From positions 1 through 32,626 of the forward strand of contig JBHIAT010000021.1 in NCBI GenBank assembly GCA_046758705.1: a stretch of DNA of 32,626 nt, written 5' to 3'. The first letter of the stretch is position 1. The number at the start of each line of letters is the position of its first letter. The translations under genes and the position numbers were made by a program. Positions 5,031 to 32,259 of this stretch are shown here, piece after piece. The notes beneath the pieces were generated by a model that saw only the letters and a list, made by a program, of their open reading frames with translations, did not search any database and was not told the DNA's origin. Origin of the DNA: Candidatus Bipolaricaulia bacterium (lineage in GTDB: Bacteria > Bipolaricaulota > Bipolaricaulia > JBHIAT01).

Positions 5031-5127
5031 GGGCTTTTACCTAGCTTACACCATCTCGACCTTTGATGCAACTTTTGAGATACCTTCGCAGTTGCCCTAT
5101 CATAGGCATGGAGATCAGTGGTGGATA

Positions 5128-5745: not shown

Positions 5746-5753
5746 TATAAGAG

Positions 5754-7336: not shown

Positions 7337-8194
7337 TTAAAAGATCGCAGCGATGGAGAAGGTCATGAAGACGAGGGAGATCGCGCCGTTGACCCGCTGG
7401 AACGCACGGCGGATCGTGGTGAAATCCCGGGGATCGATGATCCAGTGCTCATAGACGAGCAGCGCTGCAATCAGGGTCAGGCCGATCAGGTAGAGGAAGT
7501 TGAGGTCGAGGAGGAAATAAAGCGGGACCAGGGCGGCGACCATCAGGGCGTGGATGAAGCGGGCGAAGCGCAACGTTGCCGGGATCCCGAACCGAACCGG
7601 GATTGAGGAATAGCCGTGCTCCTGATCGAACTCCAGATCCTGGATGTCGTAGTAGGCATCGAACCCCGTTCCCCACAACAACACCCCCAGACCGAGGAGC
7701 ACCGCCGGTAGATCCAGCTCGCCTCGGATGCCGATCCAGGCACCGACCGGACCGACACTCTGCCCAAGCCCGACGAACGGATGAGAGTAGGTTATCTTGT
7801 TGATAAACGAGTAGCCGAGCAAGATAAAGAGGGCCACCGGGGAGAGCAAGAGTGTCAGTCGGTTGAGCATAGCGGCGCTGAAGATAAACAGCGCGGACAT
7901 CCCGATAACGAACGCAACCACCTGAGCTGGAGAGACCACACCGGTCGGCAGAAGTCGGTTGCGGGTGCGAGGGTTTTTGGCATCGTACTCCCGATCAGCG
8001 AACTCATTGAACGCCATCGCTGCAGCGCGGCCGGAGAACGCTGCAATCAGGATCCACAGAATCGCGCGCGCTTCAGGGAGCCCGTCCGCCGCCCAGACCA
8101 TCGCGGTGATGACGAACGGGAGTGCGAAGATCGCCGCCTTGATCTTGATCAGATCAGACAGTTGCTCCAGTGTTTTCGCTACTGAAGTCATCAT
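7337..8194 (-). CDS. mqnP: UbiA-family prenyltransferase (MqnP-like, futalosine menaquinone pathway)
   Basis: IFALPF, AMAFNEFADREYDAKNPRT.NRLLP, GFDAYYDIQDLEFD, SIPVRFG. Multiple TM helices. Follows the UbiD-family decarboxylase. Confidence 0.8.
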   Translation of the reverse strand: MMTSVAKTLEQLSDLIKIKAAIFALPFVITAMVWAADGLPEARAILWILIAAFSGRAAAMAFNEFADREYDAKNPRTRNRLLPTGVVSPAQVVAFVIGMSALFIFSAAMLNRLTLLLSPVALFILLGYSFINKITYSHPFVGLGQSVGPVGAWIGIRGELDLPAVLLGLGVLLWGTGFDAYYDIQDLEFDQEHGYSSIPVRFGIPATLRFARFIHALMVAALVPLYFLLDLNFLYLIGLTLIAALLVYEHWIIDPRDFTTIRRAFQRVNGAISLVFMTFSIAAIF

Positions 8195-8234
8195 ATGAAG
8201 GTGGAAATCTCACCGGCCAATCACGGAGGTGATC

Positions 8235-9686: not shown

Positions 9687-11157
9687 TGTTTCGATCGCCT
9701 CCTTGGGCATCGTTCTCGGTGTTGGATCCGGGCTCGATCAACCGTTCCGCTGCCGTCAGCGCCGCGTCCCGGGTGCGGATCTCCCCGGCGAGGATCTGCT
9801 CGTGGACTTTCCCCAGGATCTCGCCGACGCGTGGCCCTTCCGGAACGCCCATCTCGAGGAGATCACGACCGTTAATGAGCGTACCCGGATCGCGGCTATG
9901 ATCGAGCTGGGCGATGTGCTCGGCGACCGCTTCAGCCTCGGCCACCACCGATCTCCATTCGTCCTGGCGGGCGCTCGCCTCGAAGTCATCGATCATCAAC
10001 TCAAGCAGCTTGGCAAACCGCGGGAACCGGGCTTCGAACATTGGGGGGTCCGCTTCAGGGTTTTCGCCCTCCTGCATGAACCGCACCTGCTTCGCCCGCC
10101 TCATCTTCGGAAGATCCGCGATCCGCATGTGGTTCTGTACCAGGTAACGAAGCTCCCCAATCTGATCGTTGGTCAGCCGCAGTCGACGCCCGATCCGGGC
10201 AACGATCTCCGCCCCGATACGCGCGTGACCAGCCACGTTGCGACCTCGATTCTGCTCCAGCGCGATCGGTTTGCCAACGTCGTGGAGCAGGACAGCGAGT
10301 TTTAGAATCGGGTCAGTGATGCCGTGCCTGTCGGCAACCTCCAGGGTGAGCACCAGGTGGTTGAAGACATCGCCCTCCGGGTGATAATGCTTCGGTTGTG
10401 GAGTCCCTCGAGTGACGACCAACTCCGGGAGGATCTCCTCCAACAGACCGTATTCGTCGAGCCACCGAATCCCTTTGGCGGCGTTTGTGGTGCGAAGGAT
10501 CTTGAACAGCTCGTCTCGGATCCGCTCGTTCGAGATCTCCCGGATCCGCGCCGCGTGTGTTTGGATAGCGGTCTCAACCCGGGGATGGATCTTCCCGTCC
10601 AGCTCGCAGGCGCAGCGAACCGCCCGCAGGATCCGCAGATAATCCTCGGCGAACCGCGCCTCCGGGTCGCCGATCGTGTCGATGATTTTCTTCTTAAGAT
10701 CCCGGATTCCGCCGACGTAGTCGACCACCTCACCGTCTCGTTGGGCAGCGAGGCCGTTGATGGTGAGGTCCCGACGCTTGACGTCGGATTCGAGATCACC
10801 GACGAGTTCGACCGCCTCAGGCCATCGCCCCCTGCGGTACGCCCCCTCAACTCGGTAGCTGGCCACCTCGTAAGTTCGGCCGTCTGGGGCGACAACCCTC
10901 ATCACCCCATAGGGTCGACCGACATCGACGACCTTGACATCTCTGAACAACCGCTCGATCTCTTCAGGTGAAGCCGAGGTGGCGATGTCGATGTCCTCAG
11001 GCGGGAACGGATAACCAGGCTCCAATTGGGTCCGCACCCCGTCCCGGACGACCCCTCCGATCAGGACAGCCTCGAAACCAGCGGCCTGCAACCGTTCGAG
11101 GATCTCTTTGACGAACGGATGGCTTCGATAAACTTGCTCGACGTCGATCCTCATCAT
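9676..11157 (-). CDS. cca: CCA tRNA nucleotidyltransferase with HD domain
   Basis: LIGGVVRD, DIDIATSA, DVKRRDLTINGLA, RFAEDYLRILRAVR, ERIRDEL, HPEGDVFNH, LLHDVGKP, LINGRDL..GP.VGEIL. Confidence 0.88.
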   Translation of the reverse strand: MMRIDVEQVYRSHPFVKEILERLQAAGFEAVLIGGVVRDGVRTQLEPGYPFPPEDIDIATSASPEEIERLFRDVKVVDVGRPYGVMRVVAPDGRTYEVASYRVEGAYRRGRWPEAVELVGDLESDVKRRDLTINGLAAQRDGEVVDYVGGIRDLKKKIIDTIGDPEARFAEDYLRILRAVRCACELDGKIHPRVETAIQTHAARIREISNERIRDELFKILRTTNAAKGIRWLDEYGLLEEILPELVVTRGTPQPKHYHPEGDVFNHLVLTLEVADRHGITDPILKLAVLLHDVGKPIALEQNRGRNVAGHARIGAEIVARIGRRLRLTNDQIGELRYLVQNHMRIADLPKMRRAKQVRFMQEGENPEADPPMFEARFPRFAKLLELMIDDFEASARQDEWRSVVAEAEAVAEHIAQLDHSRDPGTLINGRDLLEMGVPEGPRVGEILGKVHEQILAGEIRTRDAALTAAERLIEPGSNTENDAQGGDRNNGL

Positions 11158-19422: not shown

Positions 19423-19992
19423 TCAAAAGATCTCCTGAAGATCGACCTCTAATTCTTTTAACAGGGGAGAGTGGAGCACCTCAGTACGCTGATAAACGGC
19501 GAGTGTCTCAAATCCCTGCCCCTTCCTCCCCAAGGTGAGCACCTCGACCGTCTTCGTCTCAGGGTCGACGAGCCAATACTCTCTGACACCATGACGGGCA
19601 TACAAGGTCTTCTTGTATCCTCGATCCCGCCCCTCGGTCCCTGGGGAGATGATCTCCACCACCAAGTCGGGTACCCCCTGAATCTCTTCTTCGGTGATGA
19701 TGTCGGAACGCTCCTTGGACACATAGAGGATATCGGGCTGTACCACTTCGTCCTCATCCGCCTCAACGAAGTGAACATCAAAGGGAGCGTGGAGTATCAC
19801 GCCCAAGTCGTGCTCGCGAACGAATTCCCAAAGGATAGATCCCAAGTCTCTTGAGACGCGTTGGTGTTCGAAACGGGGTGACGGAACCATGATTAACTCT
19901 CCCTGTAACAGCTCATAACGCTTGGTTTCGGATTCGGGCAGGCTTTTATAGTCCTCGTAGGTGTATTTGATCCTGGCCCTGGATTTGGCCAT
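19423..19992 (-). CDS. Uma2 family (DUF820) endonuclease-fold protein
   Basis: YTYEDY..LPE..RYEL..GEL.MVPSP..EHQ, VQPDI, PDLVVEIISP, K..LYARHGVREYWLVDP. Confidence 0.92.
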   Translation of the reverse strand: MAKSRARIKYTYEDYKSLPESETKRYELLQGELIMVPSPRFEHQRVSRDLGSILWEFVREHDLGVILHAPFDVHFVEADEDEVVQPDILYVSKERSDIITEEEIQGVPDLVVEIISPGTEGRDRGYKKTLYARHGVREYWLVDPETKTVEVLTLGRKGQGFETLAVYQRTEVLHSPLLKELEVDLQEIF

Positions 19993-20043
19993 TATCTTTG
20001 CTCCTATTCTTAGGCTTTTAGATGTTGGATACCTGGTGACTTT

Positions 20044-20072
20044 ATCATAAGAAAATCTCTTTCAGAGGTCAA
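20044..20072 (-). promoter_or_regulatory. sigma70 promoter for the Uma2 gene
   Basis: Minus strand TTGACC-17-TATGAT. Confidence 0.65.
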
Positions 20073-20086
20073 AATGGGCCTGCTGT

Positions 20087-20115
20087 TTGACGGAGAGGGA
20101 CCTGAGTGGTATGAT
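20087..20115 (+). promoter_or_regulatory. sigma70 promoter for the fusion gene
   Basis: TTGACG-17-TATGAT with TGn extension; back-to-back with the Uma2 promoter. Confidence 0.7.
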
Positions 20116-20171
20116 GATATTTGGCCAAATTAAGGATGATTTAAATCAGTTGAGAAAAGGGGAGAGCGCGC

Positions 20172-22202
20172 ATGGCACGCTATAAAAAACACGAGACACA
20201 GGAATGGGCTTGGGAGACGTTACAGGGTCAGTGGACGACACTGATGACGCCGTTCACACCCGAGGACGAGATTGACGAGGACGGGTTGCGTCACAATATC
20301 CGGCACATCCGTAAGTTGGGGACACGGGGCGCGGGATGCACCTGGGGAATGGGCGAGTTCTGGAGCCTCACCCATGACGAGCGGCTACGTGTCATGGATA
20401 TCGTGAGCGACGAGGCCAACGGCGAGTGGCTCATCGCCACCCACGTAACGCACACCTCAGCAAAGGAGATGCTGGCACTTGCAAAGCACGCGGAAGCCGT
20501 GGGGTTTGACCTGCTCATCGTAGCGCCGTCCTATATGGTGACCAAGACCGAAGCGCAGGTCATCGAATATACGCGGCTGCTGGCCGACAACACCTCGTTG
20601 GCGATCATGTTCTATAACTCACCGCAGTTTGGCATCGTGATGAGTGCAAACGGGCTGAAGTGCATCTGCGAGATTCCCAATGTGGTCGGGGTGAAGGAGG
20701 CCAGCTTCAACCAAGAGCTGTCCATCGAGACCCACACGTTGCTCGGCAAAGACGCGATCATCAGCACGCCCGATGAATGGATACTCTTTAAGGGCAAGGA
20801 ACTCGGCTTCCAACAGCAGGTGATGTTCGCTAACACCTCTGACTGGCGCTTCGACACTCCGGAGCACAACCACTACGTCCAGTTCATTGAACGGGCTACG
20901 CAAGGTGACATAGACGAGAAGTTCTACAATACCCATATCCGACCGATCAAGGAGCTTTCAGATAAGTGGTGGGGCAGGACGGTCCAGAAGCAAGGTGGGG
21001 CGTTGCCCGTCCCGATGGTGAAGTATTGGGGCGAGTTGATGGGCATGGCTGGGGGTCACGTGAGGCCCCCGCTTTCAGACCTCACCGCTGAAGAGAAGGC
21101 TGAAATCAAGCAGCAACTTAAGGAACTGAATCCCCCGGCCCAGGCGGCCCAGGTAGACCGTGCGTCGGCCGAGACGGCGTCGAGAGCATGGATCAACGAG
21201 CTGACGAACGCGGCAGGCGGGATGATGTTGATGGTCAGCGTCCAAGACCTCGATGAAGCCCTTGAGGCCGAACGGGGTGGCGCAGACGTCATCGATGTGA
21301 AGAACTTGCAGGAGGCGCTGGTCGGATCCGGTCATCCTTTCGTGGTAAACCAGGTGCGCGCCCAGATACCCAAAGAGAAACATGTGAGCGTGACCCTGGG
21401 GGTGGTCCCCAATCAGCCGGGCACCGTATCGATGGCGGTGTATGCGGCGGCCTTGCTGAACGCGGCCTCGGTGAAGGTCGGGTTTGTGAATACGGATTAC
21501 GACACGGCGGTCGAAATCCTGCAGGAATCGCGGCGCGCCCTGGAGGGATCCGATACCAAACTGATCGGCTCACTGTTCGCGGACAATCCCCTCTATGATG
21601 GGCTTGCCCCCCATCTCATGGTGCAGTTGGCCAAGGACGGAGAGTGCGACGGCTTCCTCATCGATACGCTCACCAAGGATGGCAGGAACCTGTTTGACTT
21701 CATCCCTGAAGACAAGCTGCGTGACATGGTGTTCGAGGGCAAACAGTTGGGTATGAGCACCGCCCTATCCGGTCATCTCAGGATGGACAACTTAGACGAG
21801 TTGGCACGCATCAACCCCGACATTGTGGGCGTGCGCGGAGCGGTCTGCAACAAAGGAGACCGGAGAACCGGTGTAGAAAGGGAAGCGGTTGCAGAACTCA
21901 AGCATGAATTAGACCGCCGCAAGACTGGCGAGATCGACGTCTTCAAAAAATCTCCAGTCAGCGTAAACAACAGATCCGGGAACGGATGGGTCATCATCGA
22001 CGGTCGGGGCAAGAACTGTGCGGGCATCATCGCGGCGCTGACGAAGCAGGTGGAGGATAATCAACAATCGCTCATTGAAGCGATCCTACCCGACGTGCTG
22101 AACATCCATGATGTGATCGTGTGGGCTGAGAAATCGGGGCACCGCCTGCTTGCGAGACGCAAGGATCCGGATGGCACATTAAGATTGCTCATTCAGCCCT
22201 GA
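20172..22202 (+). CDS. Fusion: DapA/NAL-family aldolase + MfnB-like (5-formylfuran-3-yl)methyl phosphate synthase + TusA/SirA-like domain
   Basis: aa1-320: TPFT..EIDEDGLR, GEFWSLTHDER, FYNSP, VVGVKEAS, GHVRPPL. aa351-585: LMVSVQDLDEA..A..GGADVIDVKN, PGTVSMA, VKVG, IDTLTKDG..LFD, ALSG, PDIVGVRGAVC. C-terminus: IDGRGKNC...DVIVWAEKSGHRLL. Confidence 0.85.
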   Translation: MARYKKHETQEWAWETLQGQWTTLMTPFTPEDEIDEDGLRHNIRHIRKLGTRGAGCTWGMGEFWSLTHDERLRVMDIVSDEANGEWLIATHVTHTSAKEMLALAKHAEAVGFDLLIVAPSYMVTKTEAQVIEYTRLLADNTSLAIMFYNSPQFGIVMSANGLKCICEIPNVVGVKEASFNQELSIETHTLLGKDAIISTPDEWILFKGKELGFQQQVMFANTSDWRFDTPEHNHYVQFIERATQGDIDEKFYNTHIRPIKELSDKWWGRTVQKQGGALPVPMVKYWGELMGMAGGHVRPPLSDLTAEEKAEIKQQLKELNPPAQAAQVDRASAETASRAWINELTNAAGGMMLMVSVQDLDEALEAERGGADVIDVKNLQEALVGSGHPFVVNQVRAQIPKEKHVSVTLGVVPNQPGTVSMAVYAAALLNAASVKVGFVNTDYDTAVEILQESRRALEGSDTKLIGSLFADNPLYDGLAPHLMVQLAKDGECDGFLIDTLTKDGRNLFDFIPEDKLRDMVFEGKQLGMSTALSGHLRMDNLDELARINPDIVGVRGAVCNKGDRRTGVEREAVAELKHELDRRKTGEIDVFKKSPVSVNNRSGNGWVIIDGRGKNCAGIIAALTKQVEDNQQSLIEAILPDVLNIHDVIVWAEKSGHRLLARRKDPDGTLRLLIQP

Positions 22203-22207
22203 CGAGG

Positions 22208-22714
22208 TTACCCGGAAAACTTCTGACGCATGAACTCCAGCGGTAACAGATCTTGGGGATCGCTGGAGAAGAGGTAGAGCTTGTGCAGATCAAGCAGGTG
22301 CTTCAGCTCGTTAATCGGGGTGATCATCCACCCGCAGATCGATGAAGCGGTCGCTGAGTCCCCCATAGCCACCGGCCTTGCGGACGACCAACAGCGCCGC
22401 AGACTGCTGCCCCCGGCGGTCCCCACTGGCCTCTTGCCCGGCCTCCAGGGCAGCGACCAGTCGATCCCACAGACCACCCGGGGTGGTCTCGAAGGTCTCC
22501 GCCATCACCTTGACGACGTCTTCACCAGCCAGAATGTTTCCCTGACAGGTGTAACCCTCGCCGACGATATGCCCAGCCCATCCCAGGCACTCTGAGCCGG
22601 TATGAGCGGCGGCCCGACTCTGAGCGTCCACCAGTCCCACCTGACGCTGAACACGCTTAGGGTCTCCGGATCCCGAGCCACAATGGAGAAAGTAGAAACG
22701 GCTAAACGACTCAT
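22208..22714 (-). pseudogene. DUF1028 (Ntn-hydrolase-like) pseudogene
   Basis: STFSIVARDPET, then a deletion/frameshift to RQVGLVD..AAHTG..C.GWAGH..QGNILAG..GDRRGQQSAALLVV..IDLRVDDHP. A second frameshift leads to PINELKHLLDLH; 3' end truncated. Confidence 0.85.
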
Positions 22715-22791
22715 GCATCCTCCTGCTAAATTCAAGGCAATCAGGACCTGCCACTATGATATAATGAACCCTGAGATATCACCAAACTACC

Positions 22792-23574
22792 ATGAAATTT
22801 TCGATCTGCCTGGAGATGATCTTCCCCGAGCTCGAATTCCCCGAGCGCATCGATCGGGTCGCAGAGCAGGGGTTCGATCACATCGAGTTCTGGGGCTGGA
22901 CCGAAAAAGAGATCGAAGCGATTCAGGAACGGCTGGACCGGACCAGCCTCGGGGTTACCAACTTCAGTGCCCACCGCCGCAGCTCTCCGATCCTCGCCGA
23001 GGATCGCTTGGCGTTCCTGGAGGAGGTCGATGCCAGCCTGGAGATGGCGAACCAACTGGGTTGTAACTCTCTGATGCTGCTCAGCGATGCGCTGACCGAG
23101 AGCAGTGCTGCCAAGCCAGCGGACCTACCTTGGGAGGAGGCGTATCTCAACCTACTCCGGGCGTTGGAGCAGGCGGCAGCGCTCGCCGAGCGCGACGGAC
23201 TCACCCTGGTGATCGAATCGCTCAACCTCCACGATCATCCCGGATATTTTCTGAATCGGTCACGTCCTGCGTTCCAACTGATCAGAACGATCGGAAACCC
23301 TGCCCTGAAGGTGCTTTATGATATCTATCACATGCAGATCTCGGAAGGGAACATCATTACCACAATTCGCGAGAACATTGAGGCCATCGGGTACTTCCAT
23401 GCGGCCGATGTGCCCGGCCGGGGGGAGCCAGGCTCCGGTGAGCTCAATTACCGGAACATTTTCCGGGCGATTCAGGAAGCGGGGTACGATAGGACGATCG
23501 GGTTCGAGTTCGCCCCGATAGCAGATGACGTGACTGCCCTAAAGGCGATCCGAGAACTGATCCAGGCACCGTGA
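22792..23574 (+). CDS. Hydroxypyruvate isomerase (Hyi)-family TIM-barrel protein
   Basis: LEMIFPE, IEFWGW, LVIESLN..DHPGYFL, LYDIYHMQISEGN, FHAADVPGRGEPGSGELNY, IGFEF. Confidence 0.88.
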   Translation: MKFSICLEMIFPELEFPERIDRVAEQGFDHIEFWGWTEKEIEAIQERLDRTSLGVTNFSAHRRSSPILAEDRLAFLEEVDASLEMANQLGCNSLMLLSDALTESSAAKPADLPWEEAYLNLLRALEQAAALAERDGLTLVIESLNLHDHPGYFLNRSRPAFQLIRTIGNPALKVLYDIYHMQISEGNIITTIRENIEAIGYFHAADVPGRGEPGSGELNYRNIFRAIQEAGYDRTIGFEFAPIADDVTALKAIRELIQAP

Positions 23575-23590
23575 TACGACCTGAGCGAAT

Positions 23591-24259
23591 ATGACTGAGA
23601 ACCAAGTGCTGCCGGACCTGAGCGCGGTCATTCTGGCCGGCGGGCAGAGCAGACGCATAGGTCAGGGGGACAAGGCCTTCCTCAAACTGGCAGGCCAGCG
23701 GCTGATTGATCGCGTCATCCGGGCCGTCGAACCGCTTTGCACAGAGGTCATTATCGTGACCAACACGCCTGCTCAGTACCAGGGGCTCGGGACCCGACTC
23801 GTGGAGGATATCTTGCCCGGCAAAGGTGCCTTGGGTGGCATGTACTCTGGCCTGCAAGCGGCTCACCGTCCTCTGAGTCTGATCGTGGCCTGCGACATGC
23901 CGTTTCTCAACCAACCCCTGATCCGCTACATGGCCCGGCTCGCCTCAGACTCAGACCACGATGCGGTCATCCCTCGAGTAGGTAAGGACGAAGAGAGTGG
24001 AAGCGGATCGGCTACAGCCAGGGAGCGCCATCTCCATCCGTTGTATGCCATCTATCGAAAGACGTGCCTGCCGGCCATGGAGGCGGCCATTGAGCAGAAC
24101 GACCTCCTGACCATCGCCTTTCTACCCGCCATCCGCGCACGGTTTGTGGAGGTGGAGGAGATTGCCAGGTTCGATCCCCGAAGGCTATCCTTCTTTAACA
24201 TAAACACTCCCCAAGATTGGGAGCGTGCTCAGGCTCTGCTCAGAAGCTCGATTGGATGA
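23591..24259 (+). CDS. mobA: Molybdenum cofactor guanylyltransferase MobA-like
   Basis: VILAGGQSRRIG..DKA, GALGGMYSGL, VACDMPF, HPLYAIY, FFNINTPQD. Confidence 0.85.
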   Translation: MTENQVLPDLSAVILAGGQSRRIGQGDKAFLKLAGQRLIDRVIRAVEPLCTEVIIVTNTPAQYQGLGTRLVEDILPGKGALGGMYSGLQAAHRPLSLIVACDMPFLNQPLIRYMARLASDSDHDAVIPRVGKDEESGSGSATARERHLHPLYAIYRKTCLPAMEAAIEQNDLLTIAFLPAIRARFVEVEEIARFDPRRLSFFNINTPQDWERAQALLRSSIG

Positions 24260-24268
24260 AGGATTGAA

Positions 24269-25426
24269 CTAAGCGAGAAGATCCTGAGGGTTGACCCACT
24301 GTCCATCGTGCACCGACCGCGCCACTGCCTCAAGCACCGCTTGGCACTGCAGTCCATCGCCAAAGTCGGGACTTGGATCTCGATCCTCAGCGAGCGCTTT
24401 CATGAACTCGTAAATCTGGAGTGTAAACAGATCTCCATAACTAAGCTGAAGTCGGTAAGGCCATATGTCAGTGCCGTACGGATGGTCCACGTGCCCGGTC
24501 ACGATCGTACGATAGCCCTGTTTGGACTCCTCATCCCCTCGAGTCCAGTAATCGAGCCGGTGAATGTCGTTGAGGCGCCAGCGCACGCTTCCGTCCGTCC
24601 CGTTGATCTCAAAGTTTAAGTTCGCGTAGTTGCCTCCGGCACAGCGGGTCGCTTCGAAACTTCCCAGGGCTCCGTTGTCGAACCGGGCGAGAAACATCGC
24701 GGTGTCATCGACGGTGACTGGACTCATTTCGTTCGAACCCTCTTCGATCGGACGCTCGTGGACGAACGTTTCGGTCATTCCGTTGACGCTGGTGATCTCA
24801 CCAACGAGATAGCGGGCCAGGTCGATGAGGTGGGCACAGAGATCGCCCAGTGCCCCGGTCCCGGCCTGCTTCGCATCCAATCGCCACTGGATCGGTGCGT
24901 TGGGATCGGTCAACCACCCGTCGAGAAATTCGGCACGGTAATGGTAGATTCTGCCCAGCGCCCCCTCATCGATCATTTTCTTGGTGAGCATGACGGCAGG
25001 GACGAAGCGGTAGTTGAACACGATCATGTGCTTCACCCCGGCCGCCTCCACGACGTTCATCATCTCCTGGGCCTCAGCAAGATCCATGGCCAGCGGTTTC
25101 TCACACAGGATGATCTTGCCGGCCTCGGCGGCGGCGACGGCGATCTCTTTGTGAAGGTAGTTGGGAGTGCTGATATCGATCAGATCGACATCGTCGCGTT
25201 CGATCACCCGCCTCCAATCGGTCTCGTAATCTCCCCAACCATATTGCTCAGCCGCGTGACGGACCGCCTCCTCATGCCGTCCGCAGATGACCCGCCTGAC
25301 CGGCCGGATCGAAGGAACAAAGAACAGGGGCAAGGTCATGTAACCGTAAGAGTGCGCCTTTCCCATGAACTGATAGCCGATGAGTCCGACACCGATCTCT
25401 CGGACATCGGTCTTAGATTGCGACAT
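24269..25426 (-). CDS. Gfo/Idh/MocA family oxidoreductase
   Basis: IGYQFMGKAHS, DISTPN..H, CEKPLA, FNYRF.PA, GALGDLCAHLIDLARYL, VDD. Confidence 0.9.
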   Translation of the reverse strand: MSQSKTDVREIGVGLIGYQFMGKAHSYGYMTLPLFFVPSIRPVRRVICGRHEEAVRHAAEQYGWGDYETDWRRVIERDDVDLIDISTPNYLHKEIAVAAAEAGKIILCEKPLAMDLAEAQEMMNVVEAAGVKHMIVFNYRFVPAVMLTKKMIDEGALGRIYHYRAEFLDGWLTDPNAPIQWRLDAKQAGTGALGDLCAHLIDLARYLVGEITSVNGMTETFVHERPIEEGSNEMSPVTVDDTAMFLARFDNGALGSFEATRCAGGNYANLNFEINGTDGSVRWRLNDIHRLDYWTRGDEESKQGYRTIVTGHVDHPYGTDIWPYRLQLSYGDLFTLQIYEFMKALAEDRDPSPDFGDGLQCQAVLEAVARSVHDGQWVNPQDLLA

Positions 25427-25440
25427 AGGGAACCTCCTTT

Positions 25441-26565
25441 TCAGCGCAACGCATAGCGGTCGAGGGCGTCTCCATCGAGCTCTAAACCGAGACCGGGCCG
25501 TTGGGGAACCTCGATATAGCCATCCTCAGCCTTGGGAAACGGTTCGGTAAAGATCTCCCGGAGTGGGTTGTGGATGTACATATATTCGTAGGTCAGGAAG
25601 TTGGGGGTGGCAGCGGCGAACTGGAGCGCAGCCAGCTGCGATACACCGCCCGAGAATCCAGTATGGGGCGCGACCTGAAGATGATAAGCGTTCGCCAGCG
25701 TAGCGATCCGTCGGCACCCGGTCACGCCCCCGGCCCTCGCGATGTCGGGTTGTAGGATATCGATCCCTCTCTGTTCAATCAGGTCGCGAAAACCGTAAAC
25801 CGTAAACTCCGTCTCTCCACCGGCGATCGGAATCTTCAGCATACGGCGGATATGGGCATATCCGGCCACGTCGTCCGGAGGTACCGGCTCCTCAATCCAC
25901 GAGATATCGTACTGCTCCAGCTCTCTCCCGACCCGCACCGCTGTCGCAGCGTGATACGCCCCATTGACATCCAGCATCAGCTCGACGTCCGGTCCGACCG
26001 CCTCTCGAATCGCCTTCACCGATGCCACATCCATTCTCGGCCCACCCAGTTCCCGACTCCGACCGATCTTGACCTTGATCGCGGTGTGACCTGCGTCTAT
26101 CTGCTGTTGTGCCTCCTTCTGCATCCAGTCCAGATCGTTGAAGTAGACAGACGAAGCATAACAACGGACGCGATCACGACCGTGGCCTGTCAGCGCCTTG
26201 TACAAGGGAACCCCCAGCGTCTTGCTGAAGATGTCCCAGAGCGCGATATCGACCCCGCTGATCGCCTCCACCATAAACCCACGCGAATGTCCCCAGCGGC
26301 GCAACTGGTCGAACATCGCCTCCCACAAACCCTCGATATCGAGCGGATCCTTCCCCCGAATCACCGGGGTGAGCAGATCCTCGACGATCGTCTTTACCAC
26401 CTGAGGCGTTCTACGGCTGATACATTCGCCAATCCCCGTCGTCCCGTCGTCGATCTCGATCTCGACCACGATGGCCGAGAAGGTCGGGAACGCGCCGATT
26501 CCGAAATGGATCGGCTCTTCAACAGAAGCTGACAGCACGTGGCAGGTGACCTTGTCGATCTTCAT
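25441..26565 (-). CDS. Mandelate racemase / muconate lactonizing enzyme family (enolase superfamily) dehydratase
   Basis: GIGEC, AISGVDIALWDI, KVKIG, MLDVNG, WIEEP, GGETE, LQPD...GGVT, APH. Alternative start 26577 is coupled to the upstream stop. Confidence 0.9.
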   Translation of the reverse strand: MKIDKVTCHVLSASVEEPIHFGIGAFPTFSAIVVEIEIDDGTTGIGECISRRTPQVVKTIVEDLLTPVIRGKDPLDIEGLWEAMFDQLRRWGHSRGFMVEAISGVDIALWDIFSKTLGVPLYKALTGHGRDRVRCYASSVYFNDLDWMQKEAQQQIDAGHTAIKVKIGRSRELGGPRMDVASVKAIREAVGPDVELMLDVNGAYHAATAVRVGRELEQYDISWIEEPVPPDDVAGYAHIRRMLKIPIAGGETEFTVYGFRDLIEQRGIDILQPDIARAGGVTGCRRIATLANAYHLQVAPHTGFSGGVSQLAALQFAAATPNFLTYEYMYIHNPLREIFTEPFPKAEDGYIEVPQRPGLGLELDGDALDRYALR

Positions 26566-26573
26566 TAGAAACC

Positions 26574-27908
26574 TCATTCCTTGAGAAGCTTGACCGTTTC
26601 CACCACCTCGTCCAAGTTCGCAAATACCTTGTGGATCGCCTCGACCCAATATTCGATCAGCTCCATCTCCTGAGGATAAAGCGGATAATGCTCCGAGCCG
26701 ATCACCATCGAACTGTCCAACAGCTTCATCGCCTCGGGATACTCCTCGACCCGATAGTCGATCGGGCGCGCCCCCGGAAAGCTCCACGGGAACCCTTTCC
26801 CGTAGCCCTCCTTGTGCTGGAACAGCGGATTGGCCGGCAGAGGAAAGGTCTGCCACAGCACCGCCGGCACCCCTTCAGCGTCGAGAGCCAGGATGATCTT
26901 ATCTCGAAACTCGGTCGGTTCGACCTCGAACCCCACGGCCTCCGGATGCAACCTGGCTCGGTACTTGTGGTAGATAGAGGTTCGATCGTTGGGCACATAG
27001 GGGGGTTCGATCCCATCGATCTCGTCGAGAACCGAGCTCAGGTACTCCCCATTGCGGCGGCTATTTTCGTTGAAGCTATCCAAACGACTCAACTGACTGC
27101 GGGCAAGGGCGGCGGGTAATTCTTGGGTCCTGTAGTTCCACCCCATCGTGTGGGCCACGTAGCTGCGACGCGCTGGTTTTCGTTGTTCACCTGGCATCAG
27201 CTGGGCCACTTCGGGTCGAGCGACGACCTCGCCGAACATGCGAACCATATCCGCTCTTGATCGATACTCGTCATCATCGGTGACGAATACCCCCCCTTCA
27301 CCCCCGGAGAAGTTTTTGGTAAAGTTCAGGCTGAACGCTCCCATAGCGCCCCACGCCCCGACCTTCTTCCTCCGATAGCGAGCGCCGGGAGCCTGAGCGG
27401 CATCCTCGATCACCACCAGGTTGTGCTTACGACCGATCTCAAGGATCTCGTCAAGGTCGGCGGGCAACCCATGGATGTGAACGGGAATGATCGCCTTGGT
27501 ATTCTCCGAGATCTTCTCCTCGATTTTGCCAGGATCGATGTTGTAAGTCTTCGGATCGATATCGACAAAGACGGGGATCCCGCCGTGATGCATGACCGCT
27601 GTGGCGGTGGCCAGGAATGAGAACGGTGTGGTGATGACCTCATCGCCGGGGCCGACGCCAGCGGCGGCGACCGCCATGTGAAGGGCAGCCGTCCCGCTGT
27701 TCGTCGCGATACAGTATCGTGTTCCAATATAGGCAGCGAACTCCTCCTGCAATGCTTTCGCCTGTGGAGCGTAAGCTCCCCCGAAGATCCCCGAGTCCAG
27801 CACCTGCATGACCATATCCTTATCCTGTTGGGTGATCTGAGGCCACGGCTTGGCCAGTCCCTCGGGGACGGTACGCTTTCCGCCGTTTATTGCCAATTGC
27901 TCTGCCAA
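26574..27908 (-). CDS. DegT/DnrJ/EryC1/StrS family PLP aminotransferase
   Basis: LAINGG, NSGTAALH, GDEVI, PVHIHG, IEDAAQAPGA, FSLNFTKN..GEGG, GWNYR. SD GGAGG before TTG. Confidence 0.9.
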   Translation of the reverse strand: MAEQLAINGGKRTVPEGLAKPWPQITQQDKDMVMQVLDSGIFGGAYAPQAKALQEEFAAYIGTRYCIATNSGTAALHMAVAAAGVGPGDEVITTPFSFLATATAVMHHGGIPVFVDIDPKTYNIDPGKIEEKISENTKAIIPVHIHGLPADLDEILEIGRKHNLVVIEDAAQAPGARYRRKKVGAWGAMGAFSLNFTKNFSGGEGGVFVTDDDEYRSRADMVRMFGEVVARPEVAQLMPGEQRKPARRSYVAHTMGWNYRTQELPAALARSQLSRLDSFNENSRRNGEYLSSVLDEIDGIEPPYVPNDRTSIYHKYRARLHPEAVGFEVEPTEFRDKIILALDAEGVPAVLWQTFPLPANPLFQHKEGYGKGFPWSFPGARPIDYRVEEYPEAMKLLDSSMVIGSEHYPLYPQEMELIEYWVEAIHKVFANLDEVVETVKLLKE

Positions 27909-27980
27909 CGGATGGCCTCCTTTCCTGTTCGACCTTCATTTTACAGGGGCTTGCCCAGGAACGCCACCGGCCTTGCCCGA

Positions 27981-28997
27981 TTACCACGACAACTCAACCG
28001 CCTTGCCGCTGGACGCCGACTCATAAACGGCTTCGACGAGCTGCATCATCAGCACCCCCTCGGCGCCTCCGGGAAACGGAGCCTTGCCTTCACGAACGCA
28101 TGAGGCGAAGTATTCGATCTGACGCTCGTACATCGGCCAGCCACAGTGCTCGATCCGCTCGGGAAACTCGGGGGTGACGACGCCATGTACGTCTGCCGTC
28201 TTGAGACGCAGTTCGCTCGGGAACAGTCGTCCGTACCCCTGGGTGCCAAACACCTCGGCGGTGCCCTCCGGCTCCGGAGCGTGAGGCTGATAGGCCGATG
28301 TCTCGACGATCGAGTAAGTTCCATCGTTCCAGGTGACGACGATGCTGGCCTCGTCGTCGACGTCGTGAGTCGAGTAACGCATCCCGATGTGGGCGTACAC
28401 CCGCTTCGGTTGGGGCTCGCCGAGCAGGAACAGCGCCATATCCAGGCTATGGACGGCCATGTCCATGACCACCCCACCGCCGGCGAACTTCTTCTGCACA
28501 AACCAACCTTTGGGACCCGTACCGGAAGGGTGAATCGCATAGAGCTTGGTCTTCACCACCTCGCCCAGCAGCCCACTGGCGATGGCTCTCTGGAGCCATC
28601 GCACTTCGATATCAAAGCGCCAGCACATCGCGATCATCAGCAGCTTGCCGGTCTGCTCCGCCGTGCGCGTCATCGACTCGGCCTCGGCCACGTTCATGGC
28701 CATCGGCTTCTCGCACAACACGTGTTTGCCGGCGTCTAGCATACGCTCGGTTTCGGCAGCATGAAGATAGTTTGGCAGGCCGACGATGACCGCGTCGACC
28801 TCTGGATCGCCAGCCAGCTCATCGAAGTCCGTATAGCGCCGCGGGATGTCCCATTCATCAGCGAACCGTTGCAACGATTCAGGCCGCCAGTTGGCGACCG
28901 CCACGGCCTCGACGTCGGGCACGGCGCGGCACGCCCGCGCGTGATACCGAGCGATCGCCCCGGTGCCCATGATGCCTATGTGCACCTGACTGCTCAT
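27981..28997 (-). CDS. Gfo/Idh/MocA family oxidoreductase
   Basis: GIMGTGAIA, LPNYLH, GKHVLCEKPMA, GGGVVMDMAVHSLD, DVDD. Confidence 0.9.
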   Translation of the reverse strand: MSSQVHIGIMGTGAIARYHARACRAVPDVEAVAVANWRPESLQRFADEWDIPRRYTDFDELAGDPEVDAVIVGLPNYLHAAETERMLDAGKHVLCEKPMAMNVAEAESMTRTAEQTGKLLMIAMCWRFDIEVRWLQRAIASGLLGEVVKTKLYAIHPSGTGPKGWFVQKKFAGGGVVMDMAVHSLDMALFLLGEPQPKRVYAHIGMRYSTHDVDDEASIVVTWNDGTYSIVETSAYQPHAPEPEGTAEVFGTQGYGRLFPSELRLKTADVHGVVTPEFPERIEHCGWPMYERQIEYFASCVREGKAPFPGGAEGVLMMQLVEAVYESASSGKAVELSW

Positions 28998-29061
28998 AGA
29001 TCATCCTCCTCTTTCTAATTCTAACGCTGTTGGCGACCGAAGGATACTCCTCAACGATCAC

Positions 29062-29895
29062 CTACTTGACAGCCCCACCGGTTATCCCCGCAATGATATA
29101 CCGCTGTACGAAGATGAATACGATCAGCAAAGGAAAGGTGGCAACGACCGTTAATGCCATAATACCGTTCCACTCGATAGAGTATTGACCAAAAAGTTCG
29201 GCAAGCCCCACGGTAACCGGTGCCTTTTCAGGTCCCTTCGTTAGAATCAATGCAAACATAAACTCGTTCCAGGCTCTGATAAAAGCGAATACACCGGTTC
29301 CAATGAACCCGGCCCGTGCCAGAGGGGCTATGATAGAGAGAAGTGCCCTTGTCCGGCTGCATCCATCCACCATGGCCGCTTCCTCCAAAGTTACGGGGAT
29401 AGAGTCGAAATAACTTTTGAGCAACCAGGTCACAAGAGAGAGGGAAAAGAGGGTATTAACCAATATCAAGGCAATATAGGTATCATAAATATTTAATGCT
29501 CTCGATAGATTAAAATAGGGAACCATCAATACCGCTCCAGGGAATATCTGGAGGGCCAAGATGGCCAGCATCAGGAGGCGTTTTGCTGGAAGTCTGAATC
29601 GGGAGAATCCGTAGCCCGCTAATGCGCCCAGGAGGACACTAAGCAAGGTCGAGGATATTGAGATGAGGTAGCCGTTGAAAAAGAAGCGCAGAAACCTTTC
29701 TTGGGAAAACACTGAGATGTAGGGATCAAAGGTCCATACATCGGGGAATAGGCTCGGTGGGTAGGCAAATATCTCCCGATTGGGCTTGAAAGAGGTAAAG
29801 ACTGCAAAGATAACTGGAAACAGAACCAGGAGGGTAACAATGATCACCGTTCCGTATAAGATCAGCTGTTTGAAAAACTCCCTCTTTTTCTTCAT
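29062..29895 (-). CDS. Carbohydrate ABC transporter permease (MalG-like)
   Basis: FDSIPVTLEEAAMVDGCS EAA loop, AWNEFMFA, QRYIIAGITGGAVK. Confidence 0.92.
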   Translation of the reverse strand: MKKKREFFKQLILYGTVIIVTLLVLFPVIFAVFTSFKPNREIFAYPPSLFPDVWTFDPYISVFSQERFLRFFFNGYLISISSTLLSVLLGALAGYGFSRFRLPAKRLLMLAILALQIFPGAVLMVPYFNLSRALNIYDTYIALILVNTLFSLSLVTWLLKSYFDSIPVTLEEAAMVDGCSRTRALLSIIAPLARAGFIGTGVFAFIRAWNEFMFALILTKGPEKAPVTVGLAELFGQYSIEWNGIMALTVVATFPLLIVFIFVQRYIIAGITGGAVK

Positions 29896-30791
29896 GCTTC
29901 GGCTTCGGTTTTCCCTCCTTTAGAATACAAGAATGTATAGGTCGCGATACACACAGAAGCGATGAGGGCGATGACCACGCCTATCGCTGCTCCATAACCT
30001 AGTCTGAAATCCTGTAATCCTTTCCGGTAAAGGAAAAAGCTGATGAGATAGGTGCTGCGTAGCGGCCCCCCTCGGGTCATGATCCACACCAGGTCAAAGT
30101 GGATAAACGTGGTGGCAAAATCGATGACAACGATCGTCATCGTCAAAGAGCGCAACTGGGGAAGCGTCACATGCCGAAATGATTGGAACCAGTTGGCTCC
30201 ATCCACCCGAGCGGCTTCGTACAAAGATTTAGAGATAGATTGCAATCCACCGAGTATCAGTACCATATAAAGGGGAAAGCTCCACCAAGCGTTGACGAGC
30301 AGAATAGAGACTAACGCCCATCTCGTGTCACCGAGAAAAGCGATCGTTGTGCCAAACAGCCGTTCGATGATGTAATTTAACGGGCCTAGCGGGAGATAAA
30401 GAAGACCCCACACCAAGGCAGCCGCCGGGGCTGAGAAAAGAAACGGGAAGATGAGAGCCCCTCTGAAGAAATTTCTCGCCTTCATGTTAGGCCATTTCGC
30501 ATTCAATAACAGGGCTATGGGGTATGCGATGGCCAGGTGCAGAGTGATCGAACCGACCGTGAAGATGAACGTGTTTTTTATGCTCACCCCGAACAGAGGA
30601 TCGGAGAAAAGACGTTGATATTGTTTCAATCCCACGAAAGTAAAAGATTGGGATTGAGCAGAGTATTCTTGGAAGCTGTACTGAAAAACCTTAAATAATG
30701 GGAACGCGATGCCCAATAACAGGAATATAAGTGCTGGAGCCAGGAAAAAAAATCCCTCAACATCGTACCTGTCTTTGAATTTCTTAAGCAT
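29892..30791 (-). CDS. Carbohydrate ABC transporter permease (MalF-like)
   Basis: FVGLKQY..LFSDP, GLQSISKSLYEAARVDGA..FRHVTLP, MTRGGP. ATGA overlap with the next gene. Confidence 0.92.
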   Translation of the reverse strand: MLKKFKDRYDVEGFFFLAPALIFLLLGIAFPLFKVFQYSFQEYSAQSQSFTFVGLKQYQRLFSDPLFGVSIKNTFIFTVGSITLHLAIAYPIALLLNAKWPNMKARNFFRGALIFPFLFSAPAAALVWGLLYLPLGPLNYIIERLFGTTIAFLGDTRWALVSILLVNAWWSFPLYMVLILGGLQSISKSLYEAARVDGANWFQSFRHVTLPQLRSLTMTIVVIDFATTFIHFDLVWIMTRGGPLRSTYLISFFLYRKGLQDFRLGYGAAIGVVIALIASVCIATYTFLYSKGGKTEAEA

Positions 30792-30811
30792 TTCTTAGGT
30801 TAGGAATGATA

Positions 30812-30857
30812 ACGACTGTGGGGCACAGGCTTAAAGCGCTCTGTGCCCTACAGTCGT
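30812..30857 (-). terminator. Intercistronic 17-bp stem-loop after the substrate-binding gene (mRNA stabiliser or partial terminator)
   Basis: ACGACTGTGGGGCACAG ... CTGTGCCCTACAGTCGT, one imperfect pair; no long U-tract. Confidence 0.6.
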
Positions 30858-30876
30858 AGTGCGTGATTCAGTCAGC

Positions 30877-32175
30877 CTACTCCTTCGCTTGTTGAAGGAT
30901 CTCGTTCCACTCGTCGGCCGCATCGTCCAAAGCGGTTCGCGCCGACTTCCTGCCCAGGAAGTACTCCTGTGAGTGTTTCATGACGACCTCACATAGCTCG
31001 CCGAGCCTGGGCAAAACGGTCCACGACCGAGAAGCAGGGTTAGCTACCATCTCCGACATGGGTCCAAGCACCGGATCCTCTTTGAGAGCTGGATAATCAA
31101 GCGCTACCGTGTTGGCCCAGGCCAGGGAATTCTCTTGGATCATCTTTGAAGCCACCTGATAGCTCACCAGGTGCTTAAAGAACTCCCAGGCCAAGTCGGG
31201 ATGCTCCGTCTGCGAGGATATCGCAACACCGCTTCCCGTAACCAGGTATCCGCCTGTGTAGTCTTCAAACGGCGGAGCAAAGGCGACCTCGATTCCAGGA
31301 TTGCGCTGACGCGCCTTGGGGGCAAAGAAAGGCCCGCTGGTGATCATGGGCACCTGCTCGCCGGCAAACAGCTCCACGAATTCCTTTTCCCCTATGGAAA
31401 GGGCCCCCGGAGTGGTTCCCGGATAGACCAGGCCCTCATCGATCAAACTCCTCCAGTATTCCAGGGCCCTGATCCCTGCCGGCGAGTCAAAACGGGCCAG
31501 TCCGTTTTCATCTGCCATGAATCCACCAGCTTGGATCAAACGGGTCCAGAAGTCATACAACATGAAGTGGCAGGAACTCTTCATAGCGAACGGCAAAGCG
31601 GCTCCCCATCTGCGAGCCTGGGGATCGCGAAACGCTCTCAAAGCATCTTTGAACTCCTCCCAGTTCGTCGGTGGCTCGATGCCTTTCTCCTTGAACATCC
31701 TCACGTTGTAGCCGACCCCGTAAGCCTGGGTATAGATGTAGGCCATGACGATCTGGCCGTTCCAGAAGACCTGCCAGCCAGGATTGTAGTGGGACATGAA
31801 CTCTGCGCCCTCCGATTCGAAGAACGGGCTCAGATCCTCCAACACCCCCAGCCGGTCAAAGGTTTCTGCCCAGGTCACCTCCATGCCCATGATATCGGGA
31901 CATTCTCCAGCCTGGCAAAGTGTGAGCAGCTTGTCGCTGTATTGCGAGTGAGGGACATACATCGTCTCGACTTCAACGTTCGGGTGTGTTGCCTCAAACG
32001 TGGAGACGATCCAATCGATCGTGTCTCTTCCCCACTCTTGATCCCACCATCCAGCCCAGACAATCTTGGTCTGCCCTTGAGCGAACCCTAAGGTTGAGCC
32101 GAAGAGAAGACCCAAGACGAGAACCAAGCCCACGCCTTTCAGAGCCTGTCTACTCCGAAAGTTCTGCTTAGACAT
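30877..32175 (-). CDS. Sugar ABC transporter substrate-binding protein
   Basis: Signal peptide, FEATHPNVEV, PDI, YNVRMFKEKGIEPPTNWEE, AWEFFKHL. SD AGGAGG before ATG 32175. Confidence 0.9.
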   Translation of the reverse strand: MSKQNFRSRQALKGVGLVLVLGLLFGSTLGFAQGQTKIVWAGWWDQEWGRDTIDWIVSTFEATHPNVEVETMYVPHSQYSDKLLTLCQAGECPDIMGMEVTWAETFDRLGVLEDLSPFFESEGAEFMSHYNPGWQVFWNGQIVMAYIYTQAYGVGYNVRMFKEKGIEPPTNWEEFKDALRAFRDPQARRWGAALPFAMKSSCHFMLYDFWTRLIQAGGFMADENGLARFDSPAGIRALEYWRSLIDEGLVYPGTTPGALSIGEKEFVELFAGEQVPMITSGPFFAPKARQRNPGIEVAFAPPFEDYTGGYLVTGSGVAISSQTEHPDLAWEFFKHLVSYQVASKMIQENSLAWANTVALDYPALKEDPVLGPMSEMVANPASRSWTVLPRLGELCEVVMKHSQEYFLGRKSARTALDDAADEWNEILQQAKE

Positions 32176-32259
32176 GTTGAGCACCCTCCTTCGATTTTTG
32201 GTTTTGGAACATCTACGGACTTGCTCTGTGAATCTTACATAATGCCCACCTCCCTTTCC

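Follow-up and report, generated by a model that had tools for sequence, protein, structure and literature searches.

An uninterrupted reading frame for three modules

The stretch of DNA analyzed here, referred to as the window, comprises positions 1 to 32,626 of contig JBHIAT010000021.1 from a Candidatus Bipolaricaulia bacterium (assembly GCA_046758705.1), and our subject is one gene within it, P0001, which encodes a protein of three modules joined by two linkers (Table 1). Module 1 is a divergent barrel of the DHDPS/NAL family, module 2 a barrel of the type of MfnB (4HFCP_synth), and module 3 a small domain with the fold of the sulfur carrier TusA. In the window the gene stands alone, between a divergent gene for a Uma2 nuclease on its upstream side and, downstream on the opposite strand, a DUF1028 gene with frameshifts. 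The three-module architecture is not a singleton and defines a large Dehalococcoidia/SAR202 family, in which parts from known superfamilies occur in an undescribed combination. A literature search that included MfnB together with DHDPS, TusA or SAR202, with subscription journals and supplementary or orthologue tables outside its reach, returned no description of the architecture, in line with the earlier statement that it is not known from the literature.

Table 1. Coordinates of the features of the window that are discussed in the text
Feature	Positions	Strand	Characteristics
P0001, 676-residue three-module open reading frame (ORF)	20172–22202	+	ATG to TGA, single open frame, complete
Sigma-70-like promoter candidate, TTGACG-17-TATGAT with upstream TG	20087–20115	+	10/12 consensus matches; 57 nt 5' of the start codon
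Module 1, residues 18–318, divergent DHDPS/NAL-family (beta/alpha)8 barrel	20223–21125	+	Pfam PF00701
Linker 1, residues 322–348, Ala/Pro-rich, predicted disordered, variable length	21135–21215	+	Predicted local distance difference test (pLDDT) <50, alignment gaps; gene cut here in other genomes
Module 2, residues 351–585, MfnB-type (4HFCP_synth) barrel	21222–21926	+	Pfam PF04476, residues 353–576
Linker 2, residues 593–604, Asn/Ser/Gly-rich, predicted disordered, variable length	21948–21983	+	pLDDT <50, variable alignment columns
Module 3, residues 606–676, TusA-fold beta-alpha-beta-alpha-beta-beta domain	21987–22199	+	Pfam sub-threshold, fold match
DUF1028-family gene	22208–22778	-	Two frameshifts, three reading frames
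UbiD-family decarboxylase gene, then UbiA prenyltransferase gene	7337–9710	-	10.5 kb from the fusion gene
Sugar/sugar-acid type cluster	22792–32184	+ and -	+: genes for a xylose-isomerase-like TIM barrel and a MobA-like nucleotidyltransferase; -: GFO/IDH/MocA twice, MR_MLE, DegT-type aminotransferase, two ATP-binding cassette (ABC) permeases, solute-binding protein
Eco29kI-type restriction endonuclease gene	5092–5745	+	
DNA methylase gene	5754–7145	-	
Overlapping ORFs, together 1135–3361	1910–3361	-	BTAD, NB-ARC/AAA, TPR
	1135–2004	-	TPR repeats

The frame runs from its ATG to its TGA without interruption, as the original prediction had described, and a GGGGAG ribosome-binding site lies about 8 nt 5' of the start codon. 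Both linkers are bridged by three Logan contigs, which come from three samples of one vent-metagenome study. Contigs X1 (record 2; positions 19926–22900) and X2 (record 7; 20337–22028) match the window with 0 differences, and contig X3 (record 17; 21087–22900) differs by two substitutions; none of the three carries an indel or a stop in either linker. Since X1 and X2 possibly represent source samples of the window DNA, X3 is the more independent witness. An assembly or sequencing artifact that fused separate genes could be suspected from the existence of two-gene split forms among relatives and from the frame-shifted state of the adjoining DUF1028 gene. The contigs of three samples cross both linkers without indel, and the fused form recurs in 74 of the 81 loci and at least 120 protein clusters described below, from many assemblies that include complete chromosomes, so that the artifact is refuted for practical purposes and the 676-residue fusion ORF is genuine.

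The signals for expression are less clear. The near-consensus promoter that had been claimed exists as a motif, matching 10 of 12 consensus positions, but two promoter-like sites are seen in the region against 1.3 expected by chance, making this a weak candidate known from its consensus match only. Before Met351, where module 2 begins, the sequence offers the weak purine run gcaggcggg and nothing stronger, consistent with the claim that a clear internal Shine-Dalgarno (SD) sequence is missing; split relatives have clearer GAGG/GGAG sites at the matching position.

An AlphaFold2 model built from 121 sequences (mean pLDDT 80.8) contains two (beta/alpha)8 barrels and a small beta-alpha-beta-alpha-beta-beta domain. 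The linkers differ in length and composition among relatives, and the modules are highly conserved (65–78% identity). The arrangement initially proposed, in which Ala/Pro-rich and Asn/Ser-rich linkers connect three modules, agrees with the low confidence of both linkers in the model and with the Pfam or fold support for each module, and the motifs named with it (FYN, GVKE, DVKN, VKVG, IDT..KDG and CAGI) are all found in the translation. Its three family assignments hold by Pfam for DHDPS and 4HFCP_synth and by fold for TusA, where the Pfam score stays under the curated cut-off.

Two Schiff-base barrels and a TusA-fold domain

The relationship of module 2 to MfnB is extensive. The 4HFCP_synth profile matches with an E-value of 7.5e-56 (189.9 bits, cut-off 22.4) over profile positions 1–227 of 228, a HMMER alignment to the MfnB protein MJ1099 covers its full length (E 6.8e-46), and Foldseek superposes the model on MJ1099 structures (4rc1/4u9p) with target-normalized TM-scores (TMt) of 0.90–0.92, a root-mean-square deviation (rmsd) of 2.2–3.2 Å and 38% identity. 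In the alignments, D375 and K377 of DVKN coincide with DVKN of MJ1099, K435 of VKVG with the Lys of its IKVG, and D498 and K502 of IDTLTKDG with its LDTAIKDG. All five residues are invariant in 121 of 121 family sequences, extending to the whole family the retention of MfnB residues that had been noted for this one protein.

MfnB chemistry proceeds through a Schiff base, phosphate elimination, isomerization, aldol condensation and cyclization, and to our knowledge the enzyme is known solely for the furan-forming step of methanofuran biosynthesis. According to a review (PMC6604932), catalysis by MfnB depends on two Lys and two Asp residues, the Schiff base is made by Lys27, and phosphate elimination belongs to the mechanism. 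By alignment, K377 would correspond to this Lys27, provided that the first seven residues of the crystallized chain are a tag. Module 2 resembles MfnB in its TIM-barrel fold, in the Schiff-base Lys of DVKN, in the second Lys and in the two Asp; it differs from MfnB in always being joined to a TusA-fold domain, in being joined or adjacent to a DHDPS-like barrel, in scoring under the MfnB equivalog cut-off, and in its genomic setting, where FTR was found neither in the genome of the window nor in five other carriers, and MCH and Fae were not found in the former. Look-alikes of the MfnB-TusA part in the ESM Atlas belong only to 4HFCP_synth clusters, from Chloroflexota and archaea. For one archaeal cluster of this kind (hit 17), PF01729 (QRPTase_C) is reported in 13% of members, which may reflect cross-matching of barrel families or a real fusion.

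Module 1 is assigned to the DHDPS/NAL family by Pfam (E 1.7e-28, 99.7 bits against a cut-off of 22.1) and by its fold, with TMt values of 0.82–0.87 to many DHDPS/NAL chains at 15–24% identity. Lys175 in VGVKEAS aligns with the Schiff-base VGVKDA of DapA structures (6xgs, 3si9) and Tyr148 in FYNSP with their IYNIP; both residues, which we take to correspond to K161 and Y133 of Escherichia coli DapA, are invariant in 121 of 121 family sequences. The DapA-like domain with its FYN and GVKE motifs is accordingly found as first described. Its subfamily is less easily named. Module 1 scores far under every NCBIfam subfamily cut-off considered (KdgD, DapA, NanA, HpaI-type and archaeal KD(P)G aldolase); the score against the DapA equivalog TIGR00674, for example, is 78.9 bits with a cut-off of 206.15, and weak matches are seen to KdgD (E 2.3e-26) and to archaeal KD(P)G aldolase (E 1.7e-12). 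A profile search of solved structures with the module 1 alignment likewise returned generic DapA, YagE and NAL matches and no specific subfamily. Compared with the class I pyruvate lyases of this family (DapA, NanA, KdgD and YagE-type 2-keto-3-deoxygluconate (KDG) aldolases), module 1 has the same fold, the Schiff-base Lys and the Tyr of xYNxP, and departs from them in reading WGMGE for GTTGE, in its identity of at most 24% to solved members and in its many family-specific invariant aromatic residues.

Module 3 is recognized mainly by structure. Modeled alone from 31 sequences (pLDDT 91.9), it consists of the elements E5–9, H15–28, E33–38, H41–53, E57–63 and E69–74, and Foldseek superposes it on the SirA-like protein 3hz7 (query-normalized TM-score, TMq, 0.81; rmsd 1.4 Å), YeeD (8k1r_B, 0.79), TusA (3lvj_C, 0.78) and YhhP (1dcj, 0.78). 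The superpositions have an rmsd of 1.4–2.0 Å over 70 residues, with Foldseek E-values of 0.018–0.11 that are not significant for a query of 75 residues. At E-values of up to 1, a TusA hit is obtained for 30 of 31 family members, the best at 7.5e-8. Cys616, in the motif DGRGKxCAG, is the first residue of helix 1 and is invariant (121 of 121 and 31 of 31 sequences), supporting the earlier description of a TusA-like domain that keeps its Cys and reads CAGI for CPxP. Single-Cys carriers of the TusA, YeeD (TsuB) and SirA-like kind have the same fold and a Cys at the N-terminus of helix 1; module 3 differs from them in having CAG for CPxP and in being tethered to an enzyme rather than free. The genome of the window (G000) contains, elsewhere, five canonical CPY-type TusA genes reading CPY(P/T), which have the D-x-x-G-x-x-C context and a WAExxGH motif in common with module 3. 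Short TusA-like proteins of 69–128 residues, 51–68% identical to module 3 and in some cases on contigs of 23–704 kb, may be a free-standing form or variation in gene calling.

A Dehalococcoidia/SAR202 family in fused and split forms

Relatives fused in the same way make up at least 120 full-length protein clusters of 667–727 residues with 65–78% identity, all of them matching PF00701 and PF04476. Because clustering at 50% identity collapses this fused family to one full-length representative, the family is young or slowly evolving, and lineage-restricted. When species-representative genomes were scanned, 402 of 416 pattern-matched stretches encoded a relative, and the best 80 of these 402 all come from genomes titled Dehalococcoidia, Chloroflexota or SAR202 metagenome-assembled genomes (MAGs), many of them complete chromosomes. 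Together with the window, these 80 give the 81 genome loci analyzed here.

The gene is fused in 74 of the 81 loci, as a single frame of about 650–770 codons, and in the remaining seven (L017, L028, L029, L046, L058, L071 and L080) a stop lies in linker 1. Four of the seven split loci have a spacer of 35–65 nt with a ribosome-binding site, after which the MfnB-like module opens with an ATG at MLLMVSVQ. The DHDPS-like and MfnB-TusA parts of L071 and L080 remain in the same frame with a single stop codon between them (at about 8991–8993), which might reflect a recent split, stop-codon read-through or a pseudogene.

The split form is itself widespread. A search with residues 351–676 retrieved at least 120 protein clusters at 66–76% identity, mostly of about 321–348 residues and many on megabase contigs, and these shorter proteins cover 97–100% of the MfnB and TusA part. 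PF04476 occurs in 21 of 301 genomes in an even sample of the class of one carrier (G185), with 16 of 22 matches in frames of at least 600 codons, and in 95 of 151 genomes in an even sample of the Dehalococcoidia order containing G185. Among the 96 matches in the order sample, 16 fall in stop-to-stop frames of at least 600 codons and 73 in frames of 325–383 codons; four more are in frames of 465–563 codons, and three are shorter or cut by contig ends. The two-gene form is therefore commoner than the fusion in at least one order. A few genomes hold two copies of the system: L040 and L043 belong to one MAG, and two PF04476 matches each are found in G275 and G613.

The split point is always between the DHDPS-like and the MfnB-like parts, which leaves the TusA-like part attached to its MfnB-like neighbor. 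Fission that always occurs at linker 1, and into adjacent genes, is fusion/fission evidence of the classical kind for joint action of the modules, and all three modules are under strong purifying selection. The original prediction had proposed an undescribed route involving two aldolase folds and a possible sulfur carrier; the linker 1 splits and the strong conservation support the part of this idea that treats the modules as one system, and the route is taken up below as a tentative proposal.

The taxonomic position of the window is unusual. Among the 184 genomes of its class and phylum group, mostly of 1.1–1.8 Mb, none of the 183 others has a PF04476 match. The window contig is typical of G000 in composition (guanine-cytosine (GC) content 55.7% versus 57.0 ± 2.4%; tetranucleotide distance rank 14 of 199), so mis-binning looks less likely. 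The placement of G000 deserves a second look, as the other carriers are all titled Dehalococcoidia, SAR202 or Chloroflexota.

Known pathways that the system does not serve

The similarity of module 2 to MfnB suggests, at first sight, the MfnB step of methanofuran or methylofuran biosynthesis with accessory domains attached. The best Pfam and NCBIfam matches of the module are indeed to MfnB, all conserved Lys and Asp are kept, and its identity to MJ1099 has been given above. The window holds no other gene of methanofuran (mfn) or tetrahydromethanopterin (H4MPT) metabolism, as had been stated, and the search of the whole genome with profiles for FTR, MCH and Fae was likewise empty: PF01913 (Ftr), PF02289 (Mch) and PF08714 (Fae) each gave 0 matches across G000, which is 93.9% complete with 4.7% contamination and has one PF04476 gene, whereas the controls in methanogens were positive. 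PF01913 is also found in 0 of 5 other carriers, and residues 351–581 miss the cut-offs of both NCBIfam MfnB equivalogs (NF002573, 198.5 versus 341; NF002575, 184.2 versus 304). We therefore reject a methanofuran/H4MPT role and regard the MfnB step of that pathway as highly improbable and already disfavored.

Several other assignments were rejected from the gene content of the carrier genomes. A DapA of the lysine pathway is not supported, given the score of module 1 (78.9 versus 206 bits) and the finding, in 5 of 5 carriers, of another ORF that exceeds the DapA cut-off. Replacement of the thiazole synthase ThiG is contradicted by ThiG in 3 of 5 carriers, and replacement of MqnA/D in the early futalosine steps, as a general rule, by MqnA/D in 3 of 5 carriers; no MqnA/D match was obtained in G000 and G187, and MenD was above its cut-off in 0 of 5 carriers. 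An archaeal-type dehydroquinate (DHQ) route from 6-deoxy-5-ketofructose 1-phosphate (DKFP) and aspartate semialdehyde is ruled out by DHQ synthase II in 0 of 5 carriers and 3-deoxy-D-arabino-heptulosonate 7-phosphate (DAHP) synthase in 6 of 6, and an alternative quinolinate synthase by NadA in 5 of 6. From the occurrence of DapA, ThiG, MqnA/D, NadA and DAHP synthase in carriers, the system stands in for none of them.

Measured against the functionally defined families, the modules fall short on one tested feature or more in every case: for MfnB on the equivalog score and the methanofuran context, for DapA on the score and the GTTGE motif, and for TusA on the score and CPxP. In the known ThiG system, sulfur reaches a Schiff-base TIM barrel by way of ThiS, a small carrier protein that is ubiquitin-like and carries a thiocarboxylate. 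The combination of a Schiff-base barrel acting on a sugar phosphate with a small sulfur-donor module likens the present system to ThiG-ThiS and to BexX-type thiosugar synthases by function only; both the barrel family and the carrier fold differ from those of ThiG-ThiS, and ThiG is present in carriers as stated.

Genomic neighborhood

Across the 80 genome loci and the window, the flanking genes fall into several lineage-specific synteny groups. One has an acetyl-CoA synthetase and a major facilitator superfamily (MFS) transporter upstream, with spermidine synthase (SpeE) and S-adenosylmethionine (AdoMet) decarboxylase (SpeD) downstream; another has isoleucyl-tRNA synthetase (IleRS) and Fpg upstream, with a CoxM-like flavoprotein or DUF1326 downstream; and a third comprises a cytochrome P450, an Exo_endo_phos protein and DHquinase II. 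In L004 (4834–7842), the fusion gene is immediately preceded, at a distance of 158 nt and on its own strand, by genes for UbiD, UbiA and a UbiX-type flavoprotein, and the window carries its own UbiD-UbiA pair (Table 1). UbiD/UbiA is found in the 8-kb flanks of this one locus out of the 80 others, and G185, G186 and G187 each have a single UbiD gene, which 190–950 kb separate from the fusion gene. We take a connection with quinone synthesis as a lead only.

Proposed function and alternatives

Tentatively, we read P0001 as the one-polypeptide version of a conserved, Dehalococcoidia/SAR202-specific three-module system, whose mechanism we infer from the families of its parts. Our best guess at its product is a furan-type or sulfur-bearing metabolite derived from triose phosphate and a 2-oxo acid. 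The MfnB-type barrel would perform MfnB-like chemistry on triose phosphate, and because it has lost none of the residues that are known to be required for condensing two triose phosphates, formation of 4-(hydroxymethyl)-2-furancarboxaldehyde phosphate (4-HFC-P) or a close analogue would be expected. The DHDPS/NAL-type barrel may then form a Schiff base between Lys175 and pyruvate, or another 2-oxo acid, and add a C3 unit to the aldehyde made by the MfnB module; alternatively, it may release triose from a 2-keto-3-deoxy acid. NahE-type hydratase-aldolases, from the same superfamily, act on aromatic aldehydes, with pyruvate addition run in reverse, and the Schiff-base Lys, the Tyr and the aromatic residues of module 1 are compatible with binding of a heteroaromatic aldehyde and addition of pyruvate. 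Cys616 of the TusA fold, flexibly tethered to the MfnB barrel, could bring persulfide sulfur to the active site of that barrel or, alternatively, keep an intermediate covalently bound at that site. The pathway would end in a small metabolite or cofactor precursor that has not been described, perhaps with sulfur in it, and not in methanofuran.

A number of observations weigh against this proposal. Since the MfnB equivalog cut-off is missed, the reaction of module 2 may differ from that of MfnB. In module 1 the GTTGE motif reads WGMGE, so that Gly-Met replaces the Thr-Thr pair (presumably Thr44/Thr45 in E. coli DapA), with G59 nearly invariant and M60 invariant across the family. The nearest stand-alone DHDPS-like relatives, at 38–47% identity, keep the Lys and do not always keep the Tyr of FYNSP, and the closest stand-alone DHDPS-like proteins have an MfnB-like or TusA-like neighbor in 0 of 80 metagenome loci (27–49% identity, apart from two at 98–100%, which are the query P0136 and a near-identical copy). 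No operon partner is common to all synteny groups, in which the flanking genes are mostly of housekeeping type. In module 3, Pfam TusA (PF01206) matches residues 608–675 with an E-value of 0.0017 and 18.6 bits against a cut-off of 28.6, the isolated module still reaches only 23.7 bits, and CPxP is absent, being replaced by CAG(I/V) in 30 of 31 sequences and by CAS in one. With CPxP lost and the Pfam score under the cut-off, the Cys could be structural, regulatory or redox-sensing.

This last point leads to a reading that overlaps the proposed three-module system, in which the TusA-fold domain is a regulatory, redox-sensing or oligomerization module on an ordinary two-barrel enzyme and carries no sulfur. 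Besides the missing CPxP and the low Pfam score, the five canonical CPY-type TusA genes elsewhere in G000 and the lack of a sulfur-mobilizing gene as conserved neighbor in the 81 loci speak for it. Yet the Cys is invariant in every sequence examined and sits at the TusA Cys position at the N-terminus of helix 1, and the domain stays with the MfnB barrel when the gene is split; we consider a non-carrier domain rather unlikely. The chemistry might also run in the catabolic direction, with the DHDPS/NAL barrel cleaving a phospho- or sulfo-2-keto-3-deoxy sugar acid to pyruvate and a C3 aldehyde (glyceraldehyde-3-phosphate or sulfolactaldehyde), the MfnB-type barrel eliminating phosphate or sulfite, and the TusA-fold Cys capturing or passing on a sulfur species. 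The weak NCBIfam matches to KdgD and archaeal KD(P)G aldolase would suit such a sequence of steps, as would the sugar-acid type cluster 2–10 kb downstream in the window. It would also draw on the phosphate elimination in the MfnB mechanism (PMC6604932) and on the thiosulfonate that TusA-family proteins are reported to carry (PMC4175335). The sugar-acid cluster is, however, not a conserved neighbor of the fusion gene across the other 80 loci, all Lys and Asp of the MfnB site for the full condensation are kept, housekeeping neighbors and the presence in 95 of 151 genomes of one order fit a core biosynthetic function better, and the sulfonate idea is a chemical analogy only. Taken as a whole, from cleavage to sulfur capture, the catabolic sequence seems improbable to us.

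Another biosynthetic role would be the construction of a bicyclic or heteroaromatic head group for a quinone or aromatic cofactor, which enzymes of the UbiA, UbiD and UbiX type would then prenylate and decarboxylate. The Ubi genes directly upstream in L004, the pair 10.5 kb away in the window, the lack of MqnA/D in G000 and G187, and the failure of MenD to exceed its cut-off in any of the 5 carriers are consistent with this idea. It is hard to reconcile with the rarity of UbiD/UbiA in the flanks of the other loci, with the distant single UbiD genes of G185, G186 and G187, and with the MqnA/D present in 3 of 5 carriers, where the early futalosine steps are not replaced, and we regard it as quite improbable. 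Just as speculative is a more specific form of the proposed three-module system, a new biosynthetic machine in which two triose phosphates, pyruvate and a persulfide sulfur handed over by the Cys are combined into a sulfur heteroaromatic, for example a thiophene or a furan aldehyde with a thio substituent. Within that same long-shot scenario, the product might be extended by a C3 unit to a bicyclic head group of the benzothiophene or benzofuran type.

The tentative assignment to a three-module system matters beyond this window. SAR202-type Chloroflexota rank with the most abundant deep-ocean bacteria. A large bacterial lineage keeps the full set of MfnB Lys and Asp residues, and none of the methanofuran-using enzymes was found in the carriers examined. 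The permanent coupling of an MfnB-type barrel to a second Schiff-base barrel and a single-Cys carrier domain points to an undescribed small molecule or cofactor. If the Cys were to deliver sulfur into the MfnB-type site, this would be a new way to a sulfur heterocycle, and if it does not, the system would still be a second biological use for MfnB chemistry. Were the new-machine scenario to be true, its product would be a new cofactor, quinone head group or signaling molecule of the SAR202/Dehalococcoidia, which are abundant worldwide.

Other features of the window

The DUF1028-family gene next to P0001 is distributed over three frames: an N-terminal piece (STFSIVARDPET...), a middle piece covering Pfam profile positions 73–188, and a C-terminal end (...EFMRQKFSG). 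As the same sequence, without indel, is present in the contigs of three samples, it seems to be a genuine pseudogene rather than the product of sequencing errors. Beyond it lies the sugar/sugar-acid type cluster with genes on both strands (Table 1). The restriction endonuclease and DNA methylase genes occupy a region (5092–7145) with 44–47% GC, compared with 55–60% around it, and look like an inserted restriction-modification island beside the UbiA gene. The overlapping ORFs near the start of the window look like one large regulator gene of the SARP/MalT type that is frame-shifted or miscalled.

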